This document shows positions 1 through 13,421 of a stretch of DNA of 54,865 nucleotides, in pieces. The translations under genes and the position numbers were made by a program. The stretch comes from Alphaproteobacteria bacterium. GTDB lineage: Bacteria > Pseudomonadota > Alphaproteobacteria > CAAHEQ01 > UBA3637. How positions within the stretch are numbered: position 1 is the stretch's first letter; the number at the start of each line of letters is the position of its first letter. The stretch spans positions 1 to 54,865 of the forward strand of contig JAZSGT010000025.1 of the NCBI GenBank assembly GCA_045532865.1, read 5' to 3'. Under the pieces are notes generated by a model. That model was not told where the DNA came from and did not search any database. It saw only the letters and a list, made by a program, of their open reading frames with translations.

Positions 1-178
1 TTATTTTTTTTGTTTTTTTTCTAATTTTTTATTGATAAAAACAGCTGATTTTATGCTTTTATAAAAAAAATAAATATGAAAAATTAAACACTTAAAAATT
101 TAATAAAAAAAAACAATAAAAAGGTATTGACAAGTAATCAATATGTAGGGTTTATTAATACAAAATGTAGTTTGTTAA

Positions 179-214
179 ACACTATATGTTGTTTTAAAAG
201 ACTACATCTAGTGT
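179..214. promoter_or_regulatory. Two NrdR-box-like palindromes upstream of nrdD
   Basis: ACACTATATGTTGT (179-192) matches the NrdR-box consensus acaCwAtATaTwGt at 13/14 positions by hand alignment. ACTACATCTAGTGT (201-214; reverse complement ACACTAGATGTAGT) matches at 12/14. The box centres are about 20 bp apart. They lie 30-65 bp upstream of the nrdD ATG and downstream of a TTGACA hexamer at 127-132. Confidence 0.5.
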
Positions 215-243
215 TTAAATAATTAAAGAGGGGTTATGAAAAA

Positions 244-2304
244 ATGTTGGAAGTTGTTCAAAAAGAAGAGCGTGAAGGATTAGATTTAGGACCATTAAAA
301 GAAGTTGTAAAAAGAGATGGTGAAAAACACGCTTTTGATGCGGCTAAAATTGCGCTCGCAATTGGTAAAGCAGGTGAAGCAACAAATGAATTTGGTATGG
401 ATGAAGCTTGGCTTTTAACAAGACAAGTTATCAAAGTATTAAAACATAAATTTGCTTTTGGTGTTATTCCTGCTATTGAACAAATTCAAGATGTTGTTGA
501 ACAAGTTCTTATTTCTTCTAACTATTACAAAACAGCTCGCTCATATATTATTTATCGTGAACAAAGAGATAAAATTCGTAGAGATAAAAGAGCTGTTGTT
601 GATGCTATTTCATCCATTAATGAATACTTGGATAGATCAGACTGGCGTGTAAATGCCAATGCAAACCAAGGTTATTCTTTAGGTGGATTAATTTTAAATG
701 TCTCTGGTAAGGTTGTGGCAAACTATTGGTTAAATCACGTTTATACACCAGAGATTGGAGAAGCGCACAGAAATGGTGATTATCATATTCATGATTTAGA
801 TATGTTGGCAGGTTATTGTGCAGGCTGGTCTCTTAGAGTTTTGCTTGAAGAAGGTTTTAATGGCGTTCCAAACAAAACAGAGTCTAAGCCCCCTCGTCAT
901 CTCGTTTCTGCTTTCTCGCAGATGATTAACTTTTTGGGGACATTACAAAACGAATGGGCGGGGGCTCAAGCGTTTTCATCTGCAGATACGTATCTAGCAC
1001 CATTCGTGCGCATCGAAAAATTAACGTATGATGAAGTTAAACAAGCAATGCAATCATTCATTTTTAATTTGAATGTGCCATCACGTTGGGGAACTCAAAC
1101 ACCATTTACAAACTTGACGTTTGATTGGACATGTCCAAACGACTTGAAGGAAAGACATCCAATTATTGGTGGTGAAGTTCAAGAATTTACATATGGTGAA
1201 TTGCAAGAAGAAATGGATATGATCAACAGAGCATTCTTGGAAGTTATGGCAGCAGGTGATGCAAAAGGACGTCCATTTACTTTCCCAATTCCAACATACA
1301 ATATTACAAATGAATTTCCTTGGGAATCTCCAAACACAGAATATTTGTTTGAAATGACAGCAAAATATGGGTTGCCTTATTTCTCAAACTACGTCAACTC
1401 AGACATGAAACCAAGTGATGTTCGTTCAATGTGTTGTCGCCTTCGTTTAGACTTAACTGAACTTAAAAAACGTGGTGGTGGATTGTTTGGGTCAGCGGAA
1501 CAAACAGGGTCAATTGGTGTTGTCACAATTAACTGTGCAAGGTTGGGCTATCTCCACAAAGGAAGTGAAGAAAACTTGTTTAATCGTTTAGATGAATTGC
1601 TTGAACTTGCAAAAACATCACTTGAAATTAAGAGAAAAGTTATTGCAATGCATATGGACAGAGGTTTGTATCCATATACAAAACGTTATTTAGGTACATT
1701 TAGAAGCCACTTCTCAACAATTGGTGTAAATGGTATTAATGAAATGATTCGCAACTTCACAAGTGATAAGGAAAATATCACAACACCATGGGGTCGTGAA
1801 TTTGCTCAAAAATTCTTAACACACATTCGTGAAAAAATGCTCGATTATCAAGCTGAAACAGGTAATATGTACAACTTGGAAGCAACACCAGCTGAAGGAA
1901 CGACATATCGTTTTGCAAGAGAAGACCAAAAACGTTTCCCAGAAATTATTCAAGCTGGTACAAAAGAAGCTCCATACTATACAAACAGCTCACAATTACC
2001 AGTTGGATTCACAGATGATCCATTTACAGCATTAGATTATCAAGATGATTTACAAACCCAATATACAGGTGGTACAGTTTTACACTTGTACATGAGTGAA
2101 AGAATTTCTTCATCAAGCGCATGTAAAGCATTGGTTCGTCGTGTGTTAGAAAATTATAGATTGCCATACGTTTCTGTTACACCTGTCTATTCAATTTGTC
2201 CAAAACACGGATATATTAGTGGAGAACATAAATTCTGCCCATTGTGTGATAAAGAACTTATTGATCGTAAACGCAAAGAATTAGAAGAAAGTGGTCAACT
2301 GTAA
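244..2304 (+). CDS. nrdD: Anaerobic (class III) ribonucleoside-triphosphate reductase, large catalytic chain lacking the glycyl-radical C-terminus
   Basis: 686-aa ORF. It has an N-terminal ATP-cone-like segment (VVKRDGEKHAFDAAKI), an NrdD-type core and a C-terminal Zn-ribbon-like CPKH...CPLC. It is followed by the nrdG activase. The RVxGY glycyl-radical motif is absent from this ORF. Confidence 0.9.
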   Translation: MLEVVQKEEREGLDLGPLKEVVKRDGEKHAFDAAKIALAIGKAGEATNEFGMDEAWLLTRQVIKVLKHKFAFGVIPAIEQIQDVVEQVLISSNYYKTARSYIIYREQRDKIRRDKRAVVDAISSINEYLDRSDWRVNANANQGYSLGGLILNVSGKVVANYWLNHVYTPEIGEAHRNGDYHIHDLDMLAGYCAGWSLRVLLEEGFNGVPNKTESKPPRHLVSAFSQMINFLGTLQNEWAGAQAFSSADTYLAPFVRIEKLTYDEVKQAMQSFIFNLNVPSRWGTQTPFTNLTFDWTCPNDLKERHPIIGGEVQEFTYGELQEEMDMINRAFLEVMAAGDAKGRPFTFPIPTYNITNEFPWESPNTEYLFEMTAKYGLPYFSNYVNSDMKPSDVRSMCCRLRLDLTELKKRGGGLFGSAEQTGSIGVVTINCARLGYLHKGSEENLFNRLDELLELAKTSLEIKRKVIAMHMDRGLYPYTKRYLGTFRSHFSTIGVNGINEMIRNFTSDKENITTPWGREFAQKFLTHIREKMLDYQAETGNMYNLEATPAEGTTYRFAREDQKRFPEIIQAGTKEAPYYTNSSQLPVGFTDDPFTALDYQDDLQTQYTGGTVLHLYMSERISSSSACKALVRRVLENYRLPYVSVTPVYSICPKHGYISGEHKFCPLCDKELIDRKRKELEESGQL

Positions 2305-2314
2305 GGAGGTAAAA

Positions 2315-2500
2315 ATGACTGATTCAGAAATTTTAAATAAATATCAAAACGAACGCCAATCAGTTGAATGTTGGACACGTGTAATGGGTTATTTTAGACC
2401 TTTCAGCCACTTCAACACAGGTAAAAAATCTGAGTTCAAGGAAAGAGTTTGGTTTGTTGAATCAAATTGTGTTTCTTGTGAATTGAAAAAAGCAAGCTAA
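2315..2500 (+). CDS. Stand-alone NrdD C-terminal glycyl-radical peptide (61 aa)
   Basis: MTDSEILNKYQNERQSVECWTRVMGYFRPFSHFNTGKKSEFKERVWF... carries the class III RNR glycyl-radical signature (RVxGY..P...N.GK..E...R). The ATG at 2315 is preceded by TAAGGAGGT (2302-2310), which overlaps the nrdD stop codon. The reading frame differs from that of the large ORF. Confidence 0.7.
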   Translation: MTDSEILNKYQNERQSVECWTRVMGYFRPFSHFNTGKKSEFKERVWFVESNCVSCELKKAS

Positions 2501-2504
2501 ATCT

Positions 2505-2535
2505 AAAACAACCACGAAAAGTGGTTGTTTTTTTC
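2505..2535 (+). terminator. Intrinsic terminator-like hairpin between the radical-peptide ORF and nrdG
   Basis: AACAACCAC (2507-2515), loop GAAAA, GTGGTTGTT (2521-2529): a perfect 9-bp stem followed by a T-run through 2534. Confidence 0.6.
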
Positions 2536-2547
2536 TAAAGGTGACAA

Positions 2548-3234
2548 ATGAACGTTGCAGGATTGGTTCCATTTACAACCATTGATTTTCCAGATAAGTT
2601 GGCAGCTGTTGTTTTTTTTCAAGGCTGCCCACTTAGATGCCCTTTTTGTCATAATCCTGATTTACAATCTTTTGATGCTTCTGCTAAGATGGAGTGGCAA
2701 GAAGTTTTGACATTCTTAAACGAGCGTAAAAAGCGTTTAGATGGCGTTGTTTTAAGTGGGGGTGAGCCATTGATGCAGCCAGATATAGTTGAAGCTGCTA
2801 AACAAATAAAAGGAATGGGTTTTTCTGTTGCTGTCCATACTTCTGGTGTTTATCCAAATAAGGTTAAAGAGTTGTTGCCTTTTATTGACTGGGTCGGATT
2901 GGATGTGAAAGCGCCTCGAAAAAAATATGAATTATTAGCAGGTCGTAAAAATATAGAAAATCAAGTTTTTGAAACGCTTGGTGTTTTATCTCAATCAAAT
3001 ATTAACTTTGAAGTAAGAACAACGCTGGACCCAAATTATTTGAATATTGAAGATATTTATGCTTTGGCTGAAGAATTAAAAGGTTTTAATGTCAAAACAT
3101 ATGCTCTTCAAAAATACAGAACTTTTCCTGGGGATAAAAATCCTCCTTCAGTTTCAGAAATTGAAAAGTTTTTTCAAGATGTGCAATTAATCGATTTTTT
3201 AAAACAAAATTTTACTAAGCTGATTATGCGATAA
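2548..3234 (+). CDS. nrdG: Anaerobic ribonucleotide reductase activating protein (radical SAM)
   Basis: 228 aa with the CxxxCxxC radical-SAM motif in FFQGCPLRCPFCHNP. It sits immediately downstream of nrdD. Confidence 0.9.
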   Translation: MNVAGLVPFTTIDFPDKLAAVVFFQGCPLRCPFCHNPDLQSFDASAKMEWQEVLTFLNERKKRLDGVVLSGGEPLMQPDIVEAAKQIKGMGFSVAVHTSGVYPNKVKELLPFIDWVGLDVKAPRKKYELLAGRKNIENQVFETLGVLSQSNINFEVRTTLDPNYLNIEDIYALAEELKGFNVKTYALQKYRTFPGDKNPPSVSEIEKFFQDVQLIDFLKQNFTKLIMR

Positions 3235-3294: not shown

Positions 3295-4716
3295 ATGACT
3301 GATGAATTTGATGTAAGTAGCAAAATTCAAAAATTAAAACATCGCATAAGTTGGATAAAAAAGGGTTTAAGTATTGCTGAACGATTTGTTCAAAACAAAA
3401 GCTCTGAGCTTGAAAAAATTGATGAAGAAATTGAGCTTAATGCCAATCCAGAAATTGAACATGATGCGCGTAAGCTTTCATTGGATTCAGAGCAATCAAA
3501 GGAATTGTTACAAACCATAGAAAAAGAATTAGATGGTTTGACAGATTCACTGTTAAATTCTGATGAAGATGATGATGAAGACGGTGAAAATGATAAGATT
3601 AAGAACTTAAGGAGATATAGACGTTGGTTGAAACGAGGACTGAATTTTGTTGGCGTTTTTATTCAAGAAAAAAATTTGGAATTGAAAGATATTGAAAAAC
3701 AATTAGAACAGTTAGAAATTTCATTTTTAGATCCTAGTGAGCGTAAGTCAAAAGCAGTTATTCCTACTGAAATGTTAGTGCAAAATGGTTCACAAGAAAT
3801 GACCATTGGTATTGGTTATAGAGGTGCTGCAAGACGGGGTGCTTTAACAAAGAAAGAAAAAGATGAATTGGTTGAGGTTGCTGAAAAGAAAAAGAAAGAA
3901 GAAAGAGATGGTTCATCGGCACAGCCAGGACAATTGCAACCAGGAAAACCTCGTCCAGGAGACAAAATCCAACAACCTTGGAAACTGATGACTCCTGCAG
4001 AGAAAAAAGATTTTATTACAAAGAAATTAAAACAAAAAGATCCACGCCAACAAAAAGAAGCCATTGACTTATTGAAAAAACCAGAAAACAAACCTTTCCT
4101 CGAAGAGTTTATGAAGGATAAAGAATTTGAAAAAACATACAAAAATGCAGAAACAATGGTCGGTAAATATGATAAAATTCGAAACAGCATTCGTAAGAAT
4201 TTAAAAACACTGATGCGTTCATCTTCTGATGTGGTAAAGGCTCAAGTTGCGTTACTGCGTTCAGGAAAGGTTGGTTCAGCTGTTGCAGGATTAAAAGAAA
4301 TATCATCTTCTGTTAAATTTGATAATGAAGTTGGAATGGCTGCAAAAGGCGTTGTTAAAGGTGTTGAAGATCTTTACAAAATGTTTAATATTAAACCAGA
4401 TGAAGCTTTGAATAAAGAAATGTTAGAAGAGGCTCGTCCCGTCTTTACGCATCAGATGGCTGAAAAAGGAAGAAATGACCGTGAAATAGATTTAAAATCA
4501 CGTCAAAATAAGGTTTGGGGCGAATCAAGAGAATTAACGGATGAAGAACGGGCAGCCTTAAAACGAATCTCTCAATCAACAGGATCAGATAAGTTGCCAT
4601 CCGAATCAAAGAAAGAAGATATGAAACTGGTTAAAGACTTGTTGGTTGATACAGTTAAAAGTGCCAAAGCAAAATCTATTGTTCCTCCAATTGTGGTAAA
4701 AGGAATGGAAAAATAA
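3295..4716 (+). CDS. Hypothetical Lys/Glu-rich coiled-coil protein with an internal N-terminal duplication
   Basis: 473-aa ORF with SD-like AGGAG upstream. It is highly charged with low-complexity stretches. I recognise no family motif. Confidence 0.6.
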   Translation: MTDEFDVSSKIQKLKHRISWIKKGLSIAERFVQNKSSELEKIDEEIELNANPEIEHDARKLSLDSEQSKELLQTIEKELDGLTDSLLNSDEDDDEDGENDKIKNLRRYRRWLKRGLNFVGVFIQEKNLELKDIEKQLEQLEISFLDPSERKSKAVIPTEMLVQNGSQEMTIGIGYRGAARRGALTKKEKDELVEVAEKKKKEERDGSSAQPGQLQPGKPRPGDKIQQPWKLMTPAEKKDFITKKLKQKDPRQQKEAIDLLKKPENKPFLEEFMKDKEFEKTYKNAETMVGKYDKIRNSIRKNLKTLMRSSSDVVKAQVALLRSGKVGSAVAGLKEISSSVKFDNEVGMAAKGVVKGVEDLYKMFNIKPDEALNKEMLEEARPVFTHQMAEKGRNDREIDLKSRQNKVWGESRELTDEERAALKRISQSTGSDKLPSESKKEDMKLVKDLLVDTVKSAKAKSIVPPIVVKGMEK

Positions 4717-6725: not shown

Positions 6726-8081
6726 TTAAAAATAAAAATATTTTGACAAGTTATCTAAAAGAGATGATGGTTCTTCTTTTGTAATAGATTTATCCTGTAT
6801 AATAACGGGAGGTTCTGAATGTAATGCTGGAATATTGTTTTGTTGTTCAATAGCTTGTTTCTCAATAGATGGTGTGATTTTATTAATAGCTTCAATTTCG
6901 GCATTTGATAAAATAATGTCTTGAGGAACAATATACTCTGGTAAAGGTTGCTGTTCAATTAAAACAATAGGATGAACCATTTTTGGCATTTGTGGCGAAG
7001 CAATTTCTTGAGGTTGTACGATCTCTTCTTGCTTAATTGGTTCAATTGTTTTTAAAGGTGCAGAAGGTGATTCCTGTATGTAGTGTACAACCTCTTCTTC
7101 AATAGCAACCGGTTCTCCCTCTTTAATGATTTGTTTGCGTGTTGTAATGGTTTTTCTAATCCCTTGAGTAGGAGGTAAAATAACTTTATCTTGCTCAATA
7201 AGTCCCGTTGTTGATGCAACATTTTGAGTCGATACTGCGTGTTGAACATGAGGTGTGTGCCCTTGCATGTTAAGAGTTAAATTTTGGCAACCTTCTGATG
7301 TGTTCATACAATCTTGACTAGCAATTGTTGGCTTTTCAAGATTCAAAAAAGGTGTTGGTTTCATCCATACTGGATCAACTTTTGTATGAGCTGGTGTCTC
7401 TATTTTGCTTTGAACAAGTTTTGCAACCTCGGGCATTGGAAAAGATGGATGTGATGGAATATGAGGTTTTTTTTCAAAGGTTAACAACATATATCCGGTT
7501 TTGTTTTGGTTGACCGCATTGTTTGATGCATAATGAACACCGATATTGCCTGTGTCAAAATTAATGTAATCAACATATTGCGCCAAGCTTAATGAAGATG
7601 GAGTGGTATGTGTTAAATTGCACGAAAATTCAGGGGCAATGACTTGAACGGCATTTTGATTTAAAATGCCCAATCTTGAAAATGCTGTTTGACAAGTTGG
7701 GAAAATATTACCTGCTTTTATTTTATAATCAATGATTAAATCGACTCCAGCTGAATCGGTTAATTTTTTTGTATCAATTAAACGGGCAGAAAGAATATCT
7801 AAATTAACTTGAGCATTGTTTGTTATGGCAGGAATAGATATCCCTTTGCCAATACATGTTTTTGATGTTGGATCAGCTTCGCAAATTGTAATAGGAGTGT
7901 TTATATTATTTTCTAACAAATAATTGATATGTTCGAATAAATGTTCTTTTGTTACTGCTTGAAACGCTGGAAGACAAGCTTTGTTTTGACATATGATTGG
8001 AGATACATCCATAGCTAAACTTTGGCTAGATAAGCATGTTATACTGATAAGAGAAAAGCTTTTAATTAATAGTTTTTTCAT
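6726..8081 (-). CDS. Hypothetical secreted protein
   Basis: 451-aa ORF with an N-terminal signal-peptide-like segment (MKKLLIKSFSLISITCLSSQSLA) and a Pro/Gln/Ile/Glu-rich C-terminal half. It is adjacent to, and co-oriented with, the M16 peptidase gene. Confidence 0.6.
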   Translation of the reverse strand: MKKLLIKSFSLISITCLSSQSLAMDVSPIICQNKACLPAFQAVTKEHLFEHINYLLENNINTPITICEADPTSKTCIGKGISIPAITNNAQVNLDILSARLIDTKKLTDSAGVDLIIDYKIKAGNIFPTCQTAFSRLGILNQNAVQVIAPEFSCNLTHTTPSSLSLAQYVDYINFDTGNIGVHYASNNAVNQNKTGYMLLTFEKKPHIPSHPSFPMPEVAKLVQSKIETPAHTKVDPVWMKPTPFLNLEKPTIASQDCMNTSEGCQNLTLNMQGHTPHVQHAVSTQNVASTTGLIEQDKVILPPTQGIRKTITTRKQIIKEGEPVAIEEEVVHYIQESPSAPLKTIEPIKQEEIVQPQEIASPQMPKMVHPIVLIEQQPLPEYIVPQDIILSNAEIEAINKITPSIEKQAIEQQNNIPALHSEPPVIIQDKSITKEEPSSLLDNLSKYFYF

Positions 8082-11429: not shown

Positions 11430-13421
11430 ATGAATGAGAGAGCTCTTTATTTAACAGGCGAAGGTATGAGTTTAGAGAAGATGCAAAAATTCTCTAAAAT
11501 GTTACATTTGTCACTTTGGCCAACAAAGGAAAAACCATTTTTATCAGAAGGAACAAAAAAGCAAATTCCTCCTTTGTGTGTTGTTATTGGGGATGTTTCA
11601 GAAGATCGTTTTAAAGAAATATTAAAATGTCCAATTGAAGGTATTATTGATGCAAATGCAACAAAAAAAAGTATGTCTGATTTTATTGAATCGTTGCAAA
11701 TACGCAAATTTCCAAACGCACTAGGTTTGTTGTTAACTGGTCCTTTGGTTTATAAGTATGATGTTGCATACATTTTTACCGGAGCACTACAGTTGCGTCG
11801 CAAATTTTCTGATGCAAGGCGAAAAGCTATTCACCTTGCAGTGCATGAATCTTTGGTAAATGGATTATTTCATGGCAATTTAGAATTATCAAGTTCTATG
11901 CGACAAGATATTGTCGGATTTGTGTCATATCTTGATTTAATTAGCAATCGGTTAAATACCCCAAAGTATGCTAAAAAAGCGATTTCAATTTTTTCCACGT
12001 GGAATAAGTTAAAGCTTGAAATTAAAATTAAAGATGAAGGAATGGGGTACTCTTTAGCACAAATTTTAAAAAGGGATTCGGGTGACACCTCATCAAAAAG
12101 TGGGCGTGGATTACAAATTATTGCGCATGCAGTGGATTCATGTACAATTGACAACTATGGTAAGGAAATTACACTTTCCTTTTTGCGTGAAAGCAAAAAA
12201 AGTAGTGTGATCCAAAATCTTGCATCAACACCTGAAGTTGTTATGCAAACAGATATATCTTCAAGTAAAGTGTTAATTATTGAAGATAATAAAAGTAATC
12301 AAGCACTTTTAGCAGGGTTATTAGCTCAAATTGGTGTGGGCAGAATTGAGGTTGCATCAACAGGGGAGGAAGGACTTAAAAAAGTTGTAGAGTTTAAGCC
12401 TGATTTGATTATTTTGGATATTGTGTTACCACAAATGGATGGGTATGAAGTTCTTTTACAGTTAAAACAAATTGATAAAGATCATAAAATTCCAATTTTA
12501 ATTCAAACATCGACAGACACGCGTGAAGCAAGGGACAGAACTTTTAAGGCTGGGGCATCTGACTTTATTACAAAGCCGATAAATCCATTAGAGTTTTTTA
12601 CACGTGTTCGTGTTCATTTGGAAAATAAAAAATTAGTTGAATATCTTTCAGCTCAGTTGAATCAAATTAATGAAGAACTGCGTTTGTCTCAAAAAATGCA
12701 ACGTAGTTTGTTACCACAAAGCAGTCAGTTAGAGCAAATAAAAGAAAAATGTAATGTGGATATTGCATCTTTCTTTTCACCGTCAGATAGGTTAGGTGGA
12801 GATTTTTGGCAAATTATTGAGTTGTCAGAAAAGAAGTTTGGTCTTTTTTTGTGTGATTTTTCAGGTCATGGATTATCAGCCTCGTTAAACACATTTAGAT
12901 TGCACACATTAATATTCCAGTTAAAAGATAAAGTTAAAAACCCATCTGACTTTTTAAGGTTGTTGAATTTGCAGTTGTGCCAATTGTTGCCAAGAGGCCA
13001 ATTTGCAACATTCTTCTTTTGTATTTTTGATACAAATGCGCAAACGCTTTCTTATGCTGGAGCAGGTTCTCCACCACCATTTTTAAAAACAAGGAATGGG
13101 ATTTTACTTTTATCGACCCAAGGGTTGCCACTTGGCATTTCTCCAAATGCGAAATATGATGATTACAAAATTGATTTTTGCCCAGGAGATAAATTAATTT
13201 TGTATAGTGATGCATTGGTGGAAGAAAAAGCAGCTGATGGGTTAAGATTAGGTGAAGAAGGTTTAATCAGTTTGTTGCAAACGGTGTTTAGATATAAAGA
13301 TAATAGAGAAGCTGTTTCTCAATTAATGCAGTTATTCTTTAAAATGTTACCTCCACCACCACAAGATGATGTAACATTGGTTTGGGTTGATGCATTACCT
13401 CCAAAAAGAAAGAAAAAATAA
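11430..13421 (+). CDS. Multidomain signalling protein: RsbW/SpoIIAB-like HATPase domain + response-regulator receiver + PP2C (SpoIIE) phosphatase
   Basis: HATPase-like boxes are present: HESLVNGLFHGN, IKDEGMGY, GRGLQIIAHAVD. REC motifs are present: VLIIEDNKSN, DLIILDIVLPQMDGYEV, ITKPINPLEF. PP2C motifs are present: GGDFWQ, LCDFSGHGLSAS, LILYSDALVE. The ORF is open from a TTG at 11325, but that lies only 25 nt from the divergent gene start; the ATG at 11430 (or 11391) is more plausible, and the start remains uncertain. Confidence 0.8.
   Translation: MNERALYLTGEGMSLEKMQKFSKMLHLSLWPTKEKPFLSEGTKKQIPPLCVVIGDVSEDRFKEILKCPIEGIIDANATKKSMSDFIESLQIRKFPNALGLLLTGPLVYKYDVAYIFTGALQLRRKFSDARRKAIHLAVHESLVNGLFHGNLELSSSMRQDIVGFVSYLDLISNRLNTPKYAKKAISIFSTWNKLKLEIKIKDEGMGYSLAQILKRDSGDTSSKSGRGLQIIAHAVDSCTIDNYGKEITLSFLRESKKSSVIQNLASTPEVVMQTDISSSKVLIIEDNKSNQALLAGLLAQIGVGRIEVASTGEEGLKKVVEFKPDLIILDIVLPQMDGYEVLLQLKQIDKDHKIPILIQTSTDTREARDRTFKAGASDFITKPINPLEFFTRVRVHLENKKLVEYLSAQLNQINEELRLSQKMQRSLLPQSSQLEQIKEKCNVDIASFFSPSDRLGGDFWQIIELSEKKFGLFLCDFSGHGLSASLNTFRLHTLIFQLKDKVKNPSDFLRLLNLQLCQLLPRGQFATFFFCIFDTNAQTLSYAGAGSPPPFLKTRNGILLLSTQGLPLGISPNAKYDDYKIDFCPGDKLILYSDALVEEKAADGLRLGEEGLISLLQTVFRYKDNREAVSQLMQLFFKMLPPPPQDDVTLVWVDALPPKRKKK

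Follow-up and report, generated by a model that had tools for sequence, protein, structure and literature searches.

We analysed a stretch of 54,865 nucleotides (nt) from an Alphaproteobacteria bacterium (the window, contig C23 of a draft genome of 1.51 Mb in 72 contigs, 95% complete) and found that its class III (anaerobic) ribonucleotide reductase (RNR) is encoded by two consecutive genes, with the glycyl-radical loop on a small gene of its own. The two products, a body of 686 amino acids (aa) and a radical subunit of 61 aa, very probably form a working class III RNR of two polypeptides. We observed the arrangement in the layout of the genes, in their conservation and the selection acting on them, in the enzyme's apparent status as the sole RNR, and in a paralogue of the small gene with its own synteny and signals. 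The feature is real and conserved, and the two-gene class III RNR is a variant of a known enzyme.

Results

The reductase body and its small radical subunit

The nrdD body gene (positions 244-2304, forward strand), identified by open reading frame (ORF) reading and profile matches, encodes 686 aa and ends with a TAA stop codon at 2302-2304. Its product comprises an ATP-cone (PF03477) and positions 2-534 of the 562 positions of PF13597 (E 8.5e-177), and it matched positions 3-661 of the 684 of NF006126 with 1142 bits (cut-off 548). Within the catalytic barrel lies the finger loop SMCCRL with C397 and C398, and C397, C398 and R399 were invariant in our alignment of body sequences (alignment A2). 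A Zn ribbon, C652-x2-H655 ... C665-x2-C668, is complete in the large chain, with metal binding predicted from sequence; C652 and C665 were invariant and C668 at least 90% conserved in alignment A2. The Zn motif of the Thermotoga maritima NrdD is Cys-His-Cys-Cys (PMC4493059). No glycyl-radical segment or RVxGY motif was found on the large ORF, whose chain ends 18 residues past C668. Among the features of a class III NrdD, the large chain therefore has the barrel with its finger loop and the Zn ribbon, and it does not have the radical loop in cis. The cognate radical S-adenosylmethionine (SAM) activase is present as nrdG (2548-3234, forward strand; 228 aa), which matched TIGR02495 (NrdG2) with 203.8 bits against a cut-off of 131 as well as PF04055, and nrdG adjoins the small gene in relatives too. 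The whole genome contains one nrdD body and two small genes.

The small glycyl-radical subunit gene (2315-2500, forward strand; 61 codons) was assigned from its PF13597 match, its conservation and its ratio of non-synonymous to synonymous substitution rates (dN/dS). Its frame is +1 relative to nrdD and the two ORFs are 10 nt apart. The Shine-Dalgarno (SD) site serving it, TAAGGAGGT (2302-2310, forward strand), overlaps the nrdD stop, with a spacer of 6 nt between its GGAGG and the ATG. The small ORF matched positions 530-561 of PF13597 with 32.9 bits (gathering score 26.2; E 3.8e-8), and we do not regard this match as chance because it falls at the end of the family profile where the glycyl radical lies. 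Within WTRVMGYFRP of the small protein, G25 is the radical glycine. A total of 42 residues of body tail and small-protein head separate C668 of the body from G25, while the gap from Zn ribbon to glycyl-radical loop in fused relatives of the clade is about 12-16 residues; the tail and head together add about 30 residues over these fused relatives. These readings agree with those of the initial annotation, made from the window alone, as to both ORFs, the nrdD stop, the missing RVxGY motif and the well-spaced SD site overlapping that stop. Its estimate of about 40 residues between the last Zn ligand and the radical glycine also stands, while the 17 residues it gave for the nrdD tail become 18, and alignment to the NrdD families, which it had proposed, placed the two ORFs on NF006126 and on the radical end of PF13597 as given above.

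A word-based search of 5.8 billion proteins yielded stand-alone homologues of the small protein, 50-87 aa long, in 116 clusters, all annotated with PF13597 and most unnamed. Aligning 62 stand-alone homologues (alignment A1) gave 14 invariant columns: W20, T21, V23, M24, G25, Y26, R28, P29, N34, G36, K37, E40, R44 and F47. Among 50,697 phage records, tblastn with the small protein returned no match at E up to 1e-3. Searching PDB sequences with the 61-aa protein gave no match at E up to 1, which is uninformative for a query this short and divergent.

Several cysteines were observed outside the radical loop. The small protein has a Cys pair (C52, C55) on its C-terminal tail, and a C-terminal Cys pair (residues 51-61, gene positions 2465-2497) was observed in 32 of 38 small-protein copies from the family and its relatives. 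Of 52 split sister lineages, 10 have the pair on the large-chain tail instead (P0117, P0123, P0127, P0130, P0139, P0147, P0167 and P0227 among the proteins cited). The Cys-pair tails are reminiscent of class I and II RNRs, in which a C-terminal tail serves as a redox shuttle that delivers reducing equivalents to the active site. In nearly all stand-alone homologues a further Cys lies one or three residues before W20 (VEC, CEV or CEI). A small-chain Cys that completes the Zn site was considered and not adopted; all four ligands of the T. maritima type sit in the large chain.

Conservation across the family

The small gene was observed in 40 of 41 genomes of an even sample of the family covering 16 genera, as open frames of 62-138 aa that were never fused to nrdD. 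Purifying selection on the operon copies was strong in pairwise Nei-Gojobori comparisons, with a median dN/dS of 0.075 over 24 pairs. Two cultured isolates have the same gene order: Neorhizobium huautlense, with products of 597, 67 and 205 aa, and Thermotomaculum hydrothermale, for which the genome is complete, with products of 688, 60 and 225 aa.

A search for the large subunit of a class I or II RNR (PF02867), which as a control matched 12 of 14 named genomes, was negative for this genome, at its 95% completeness, and for all 41 family genomes. Because PF02867 was not found in any of the 41 genomes, the two-gene enzyme appears from these searches to be the only deoxyribonucleotide route in the whole family.

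A second, free-standing copy of the small gene

A second small gene, 70% identical to the operon copy, was observed on contig C35 at 11666-11848 (positions 7667-7849 of locus L021, minus strand), with no nrdD near it at that locus. The orphan is preceded by a promoter-like site (TTGACA-N17-TATCAAT) with an A-tract upstream and by an SD site, and a terminator-like hairpin with a GC stem and T-run directly follows its stop. The gene, the promoter (TTGACA-N17-TATGAAT or TATCAAT) and the terminator are kept across the genus, and a position upstream of a transglutaminase-like gene was observed in at least 10 genomes. From these signals the orphan looks like an independent monocistronic gene. Purifying selection on orphan copies equals that on the operon copies, with a median dN/dS of 0.076 over 28 pairs. 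No NrdR-like box was found upstream of the orphan in this genome when searched within 3 mismatches. In two other species (L015, L020) an NrdR-like ATCTATATATTGTGG lies between the promoter and the SD site of the orphan, and regulation of the spare gene differs between lineages.

Two or three small genes were observed in 25 of the 41 family genomes. Within a class-level sample, 30 of 251 genomes had a match, 22 of these as short frames only, and 8 of the 22 contained 2-5 copies. The other 8 genomes had a fused gene with one match each, and an extra small copy was observed in none of them (0/8). Extra small copies thus accompany the split enzyme in the class sample and do not back up a one-chain enzyme. 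Some genomes of the same class (G026, G073, G253) contain 4-5 separate small radical genes, all of them short open frames.

We considered it unlikely, though the least improbable of the alternatives, that only the operon copy is a true subunit, with the orphan being something else, for instance a decaying duplicate or a protein that regulates NrdD or NrdG or inhibits them competitively. In its favor, the orphan of this genome reads Cys for a nearly invariant Arg of WTRVMGY (R22C, CGT to TGT), its regulatory signals differ from those of the operon, and every extra copy in the class sample accompanies a split enzyme. Orthologues in other species, however, retain all invariant residues, R22 and G25 included, and the sister-species orthologues all keep the Arg. 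The dN/dS value and the retention of promoter and terminator across the genus also speak for a functional subunit, as do the few differences between the two copies of this genome, which number only four, R22C included, within the segments that contact the body in the model described below (13-28, 34-40 and 43-49).

Separate translation of the two reading frames

We compared 21 operon-type loci of relatives, in each of which nrdD is followed by the small gene as an ORF of its own. Depending on the locus, 9 to 197 nt lie between the stop of nrdD and the ATG of the small gene, and each of the three relative frames was observed. One species group (L012, L017, L018, L019) has spacers of 167-197 nt, as against 9-28 nt. 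The nrdD stops were TAA except for one TAG. At all 21 loci the conserved ATG has an SD-like AGGAG, GGAGG or AAGGA ahead of it, and the small genes mostly start with a conserved Met-Thr-Asp or a close variant.

These loci bear on whether the two ORFs nonetheless give a single chain, through programmed frameshifting, readthrough of the stop codon or split-intein trans-splicing. We regard this as very improbable, although in some relatives (L002, L006, L008) the two ORFs share a frame with one stop between them, and NrdDs of this clade are intein-rich (PF14890 in P0169). No recoding geometry is conserved among loci that use all frames and spacers of up to 197 nt and that give the small gene its own SD site and conserved start. 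With 18 aa in the tail and about 16 aa in the head, there is nowhere near enough room for the halves of an intein. Neither ORF has a Pfam intein match, and each orphan paralogue is clearly a monocistronic gene in its own right.

A 72-contig draft with ORFs just 10 nt and one frame apart might raise the suspicion that a one-chain nrdD was broken by an assembly or sequencing indel or has recently become a pseudogene through a frameshift. Either is hardly credible given the split in nearly every family genome and in isolate and complete genomes, the varied spacers and frames, the dN/dS of the operon copies, the extra tail and head residues that fused relatives do not have, and the failure to find any other RNR in the 41 genomes. 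On these comparisons the split is old, and an assembly error or fresh frameshift is excluded. Service of the small proteins to another glycyl-radical enzyme instead of NrdD is just as implausible: the genome does encode one enzyme like pyruvate formate-lyase (contig C33; 791-aa frame) with a Gly_radical domain, its sole PF01228 match, but that enzyme has an intact radical domain of its own (PF01228 positions 1-106 of 106), whereas the small proteins match PF13597 and not PF01228, one of them sits between nrdD and nrdG, and the NrdD body has no radical domain.

The initial annotation had already argued for an established two-gene arrangement with a separately translated radical peptide over a fresh frameshift. 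Conservation, selection, sole-RNR status, the isolates and the docking model all point the same way, as does the survey of relatives that it had called for, with the split in 40 of the 41 family genomes; no close relative turned out to be fused through an identical linker, and the loci have no recoding geometry in common.

A predicted assembly of the two chains

We modelled body residues 115-686 (with alignment A2) together with Zn and the small protein (with alignment A1). The predicted complex had an ipSAE of 0.81 (0.81, 0.76 and 0.82 in three runs), and the best of three controls reached 0.02; in the calibration of ipSAE, the mark was reached by 58 of 80 solved complexes versus 2 of 110 mismatched pairs. 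The runs had at least 83% of contacts in common, and the pLDDT (predicted local distance difference test) of the partner was at least 77.

Small-chain residues 13-28 and 34-49 contact segments of the barrel in the model and, next to the Zn ribbon, the 648-652 strand, with residues 17-20 pairing as a strand with body residues 648-652 and residue 17 contacting C652 and C665. The body tail (672-680) packs on the head of the small chain (1-14), and fused relatives are without both of these segments. The modelled packing suggests that the added tail and head form a non-covalent clasp replacing the covalent link.

Repeated origins among the nearest NrdD proteins

We collected the 150 nearest NrdD proteins by an exhaustive HMMER search of 1.84 billion cluster representatives and scanned them with a hidden Markov model built from the small proteins. 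The radical domain was observed in 59 of the 150 representatives, while 68 lack it and stop no more than 44 aa past the Zn ribbon. It is missing, too, from about 13 of the remaining representatives, which have a variant fourth-ligand motif (CPY.H and similar) that is common to some of the 68. A FastTree tree was built from 530 body columns and 130 rows, with inteins removed by keeping only columns that match the query. On this tree the fused state and the state without a radical domain are separated by at least 24 changes, at least 9 of them forced by well-supported branches, with the caveats that FastTree is a quick method, that the labels derive from predicted proteins of metagenome contigs and that representatives tend to be the longest members of their clusters. 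The NrdD of the window falls in a supported clade of 26 rows, of which 22 are split and 4 fused. Because of these state changes, forced ones included, fission or re-fusion has, on the sequence tree, occurred repeatedly.

Other features were noted among these proteins. Most of the nearest representatives (P0117-P0266) are 900-1800 aa long with 2-5 matched stretches, pointing to one to several inteins in the body, and an intein Pfam match (PF14890) is on record for P0169. In one group of NrdDs the fourth Zn ligand is replaced (CPY.H...) and no radical domain is present: P0169 (L025, 3001-6201), P0134, P0150, P0159 and P0171. At the single locus of this group that was examined (L025) no small radical gene adjoins, and the topoisomerase and AAA neighbors give it a phage-like look. 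Some fused relatives (P0126, P0132, P0144, P0161, P0175, P0186) have a glutaredoxin/NrdH-like domain (TCPNC) after the radical domain, which fits a thiol-based reductant in this NrdD clade.

Regulatory signals and neighbors of the operon

The promoter region of the nrd operon (127-215, forward strand) was delimited by sequence reading and a pattern search. It contains a TTGACA at 127-132, upstream of nrdD, and three NrdR-box-like palindromes at 158-173, 179-194 and 199-214, each with 2-3 mismatches to ACACWATATWTWGTGT. The number of such box matches across the whole window was not above chance, and their clustering before nrdD is no more than suggestive. The genome contains an nrdR gene (TIGR00244, 164 bits).

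A hairpin with a T-run lies between the small gene and nrdG (2505-2538, forward strand). Folding gave an 11-bp hairpin at 2505-2531 with a dG of -14.3 kcal/mol and a z of -3.4, although a consensus terminator scan made no call there. The hairpin is retained in the closest species with compensatory stem changes (AACCAC/GTGGTT, AACCGC/GCGGTT, CAGCCGC/GCGGCTG) and is missing in more distant relatives, where the gap between the small gene and nrdG is 0-24 nt. The element looks like a putative intrinsic terminator or attenuator, and it may lower expression of the activase relative to the reductase. Directly downstream of nrdG is an ORF of 473 aa (3295-4716), charged and rich in low-complexity sequence.

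Discussion

The closest relative of the two-gene enzyme is the one-chain NrdD of the T. maritima type (PDB 4COI/4U3E; NF006126/PRK08270) with its NrdG. The two have in common the barrel, the SMCCRL double-Cys loop, the Cys-His-Cys-Cys ribbon, the RVxGY motif, an adjacent nrdG, the ATP-cone and NrdR-type boxes. Unlike the T. maritima type, the enzyme described here has its radical loop on a polypeptide of its own and has paralogous genes for the radical subunit, and unlike the fused forms it has an 18-residue body tail, a 16-residue small-protein head and a Cys-rich small-protein tail. A second comparison is the split class II RNR NrdJa/NrdJb of Pseudomonas aeruginosa (Crona et al. 2015, as cited in PMC9669993). 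As far as that citation describes it, NrdJa/NrdJb likewise has an RNR catalytic chain spread over two consecutive genes with the C-terminal module on the second, but it belongs to another class with another cofactor, and the NrdJb fragment is large, with redox and Zn-finger modules and not the radical site. The literature searched, which does not cover most subscription journals, yielded no account of a class III RNR that is split.

The closest functional analogue is GrcA/YfiD (and Y06I of T4), the autonomous radical 'spare part' of pyruvate formate-lyase. The initial annotation had drawn this comparison, and it stands as an analogy: both are small stand-alone glycyl-radical domains, presumably activated by the parent's activase and docking in the parent's barrel, and the orphan is monocistronic like grcA. 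The likeness does not extend to family, with the small ORF matching PF13597 only, and not PF01228, at E up to 0.1. Nor does it extend to role, since GrcA rescues a parent with a radical domain of its own while the NrdD body described here has none, so that one copy is obligatory. The operon copy is not a spare because it is the only radical domain the body has, and the free-standing second gene fits the spare-part idea better. A review of June 2026 describes spare-part proteins as known only for formate-lyases and their existence for other glycyl-radical enzymes as undetermined (PMC13450708).

In the mechanism that we propose, the body would supply the ATP-cone, the catalytic barrel and the complete Zn ribbon, and the 61-aa protein would supply the glycyl-radical loop in trans. 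According to the model the loop would insert into the barrel, with the small subunit filling the site of the C-terminal domain of one-chain enzymes. NrdG would install the radical on the small subunit, at G25. Cleavage by oxygen at the radical glycine is an established trait of glycyl-radical proteins (restated in PMC13450708), and because of this the damage would fall on the replaceable 7-kDa subunit. A spent or oxygen-cleaved subunit could then be replaced without remaking the body, which is conceivable because the radical part is a separate, cheap protein of 7 kDa, and the second, monocistronic and differently regulated gene would give an independent supply of it. Exchange of the subunit after oxygen damage is plausible by analogy. 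The fuller proposal is more tentative, and we hold it as a possibility that may well prove wrong: an exchangeable cartridge in which NrdG activates the free small protein before it docks, which is swapped after oxygen cleavage from at least two differently regulated genes, and for which the tail Cys pair (on the cartridge here, on the body in sister lineages) might also shuttle reducing equivalents to the active site.

Several points weigh against this account of the enzyme and of its extra gene. A docking pass would be expected for the halves of a known fold and may reflect memory of it, and it argues weakly, for likeness to the one-chain fold and not for binding. The model's listed contacts on the body leave out the finger-loop residues C397 and C398. 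Salvage of deoxynucleosides is conceivable in genomes of 1-2 Mb, so that being the sole RNR is not strict proof of essentiality. The orphan with R22C may be impaired, or the base may be an error in the consensus of the metagenome-assembled genome. The extra small genes, seen only beside split enzymes, may be ordinary subunit paralogues and not rescue factors.

What is new here is the apparent use of a split class III enzyme as the sole RNR across a family, the multiple origins of the split on the tree, an orphan gene that is conserved, under selection and separately promoted, and the occurrence of extra copies only beside split enzymes in the class sample. A large proportion of the nearest NrdD clusters have the split layout, and paralogues of the small gene are common beside split enzymes. 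For annotation, the consequence is that the small genes are mostly unnamed or 'hypothetical' and that the bodies resemble a truncated NrdD. The cultured carriers N. huautlense and T. hydrothermale make the question directly testable.

In every characterised case found in the literature searched, glycyl-radical enzymes carry the radical on the catalytic chain, with GrcA, which restores oxygen-cleaved pyruvate formate-lyase, as the single known exception. A two-polypeptide class III RNR, with its radical site on a separate small protein, would offer a natural system for the installation and transfer of a radical in trans. Should the small proteins prove to be exchangeable cartridges, they would be the first spare-part proteins beyond pyruvate formate-lyase, and the arrangement may represent a strategy for repairing oxygen damage in gut and sediment anaerobes.

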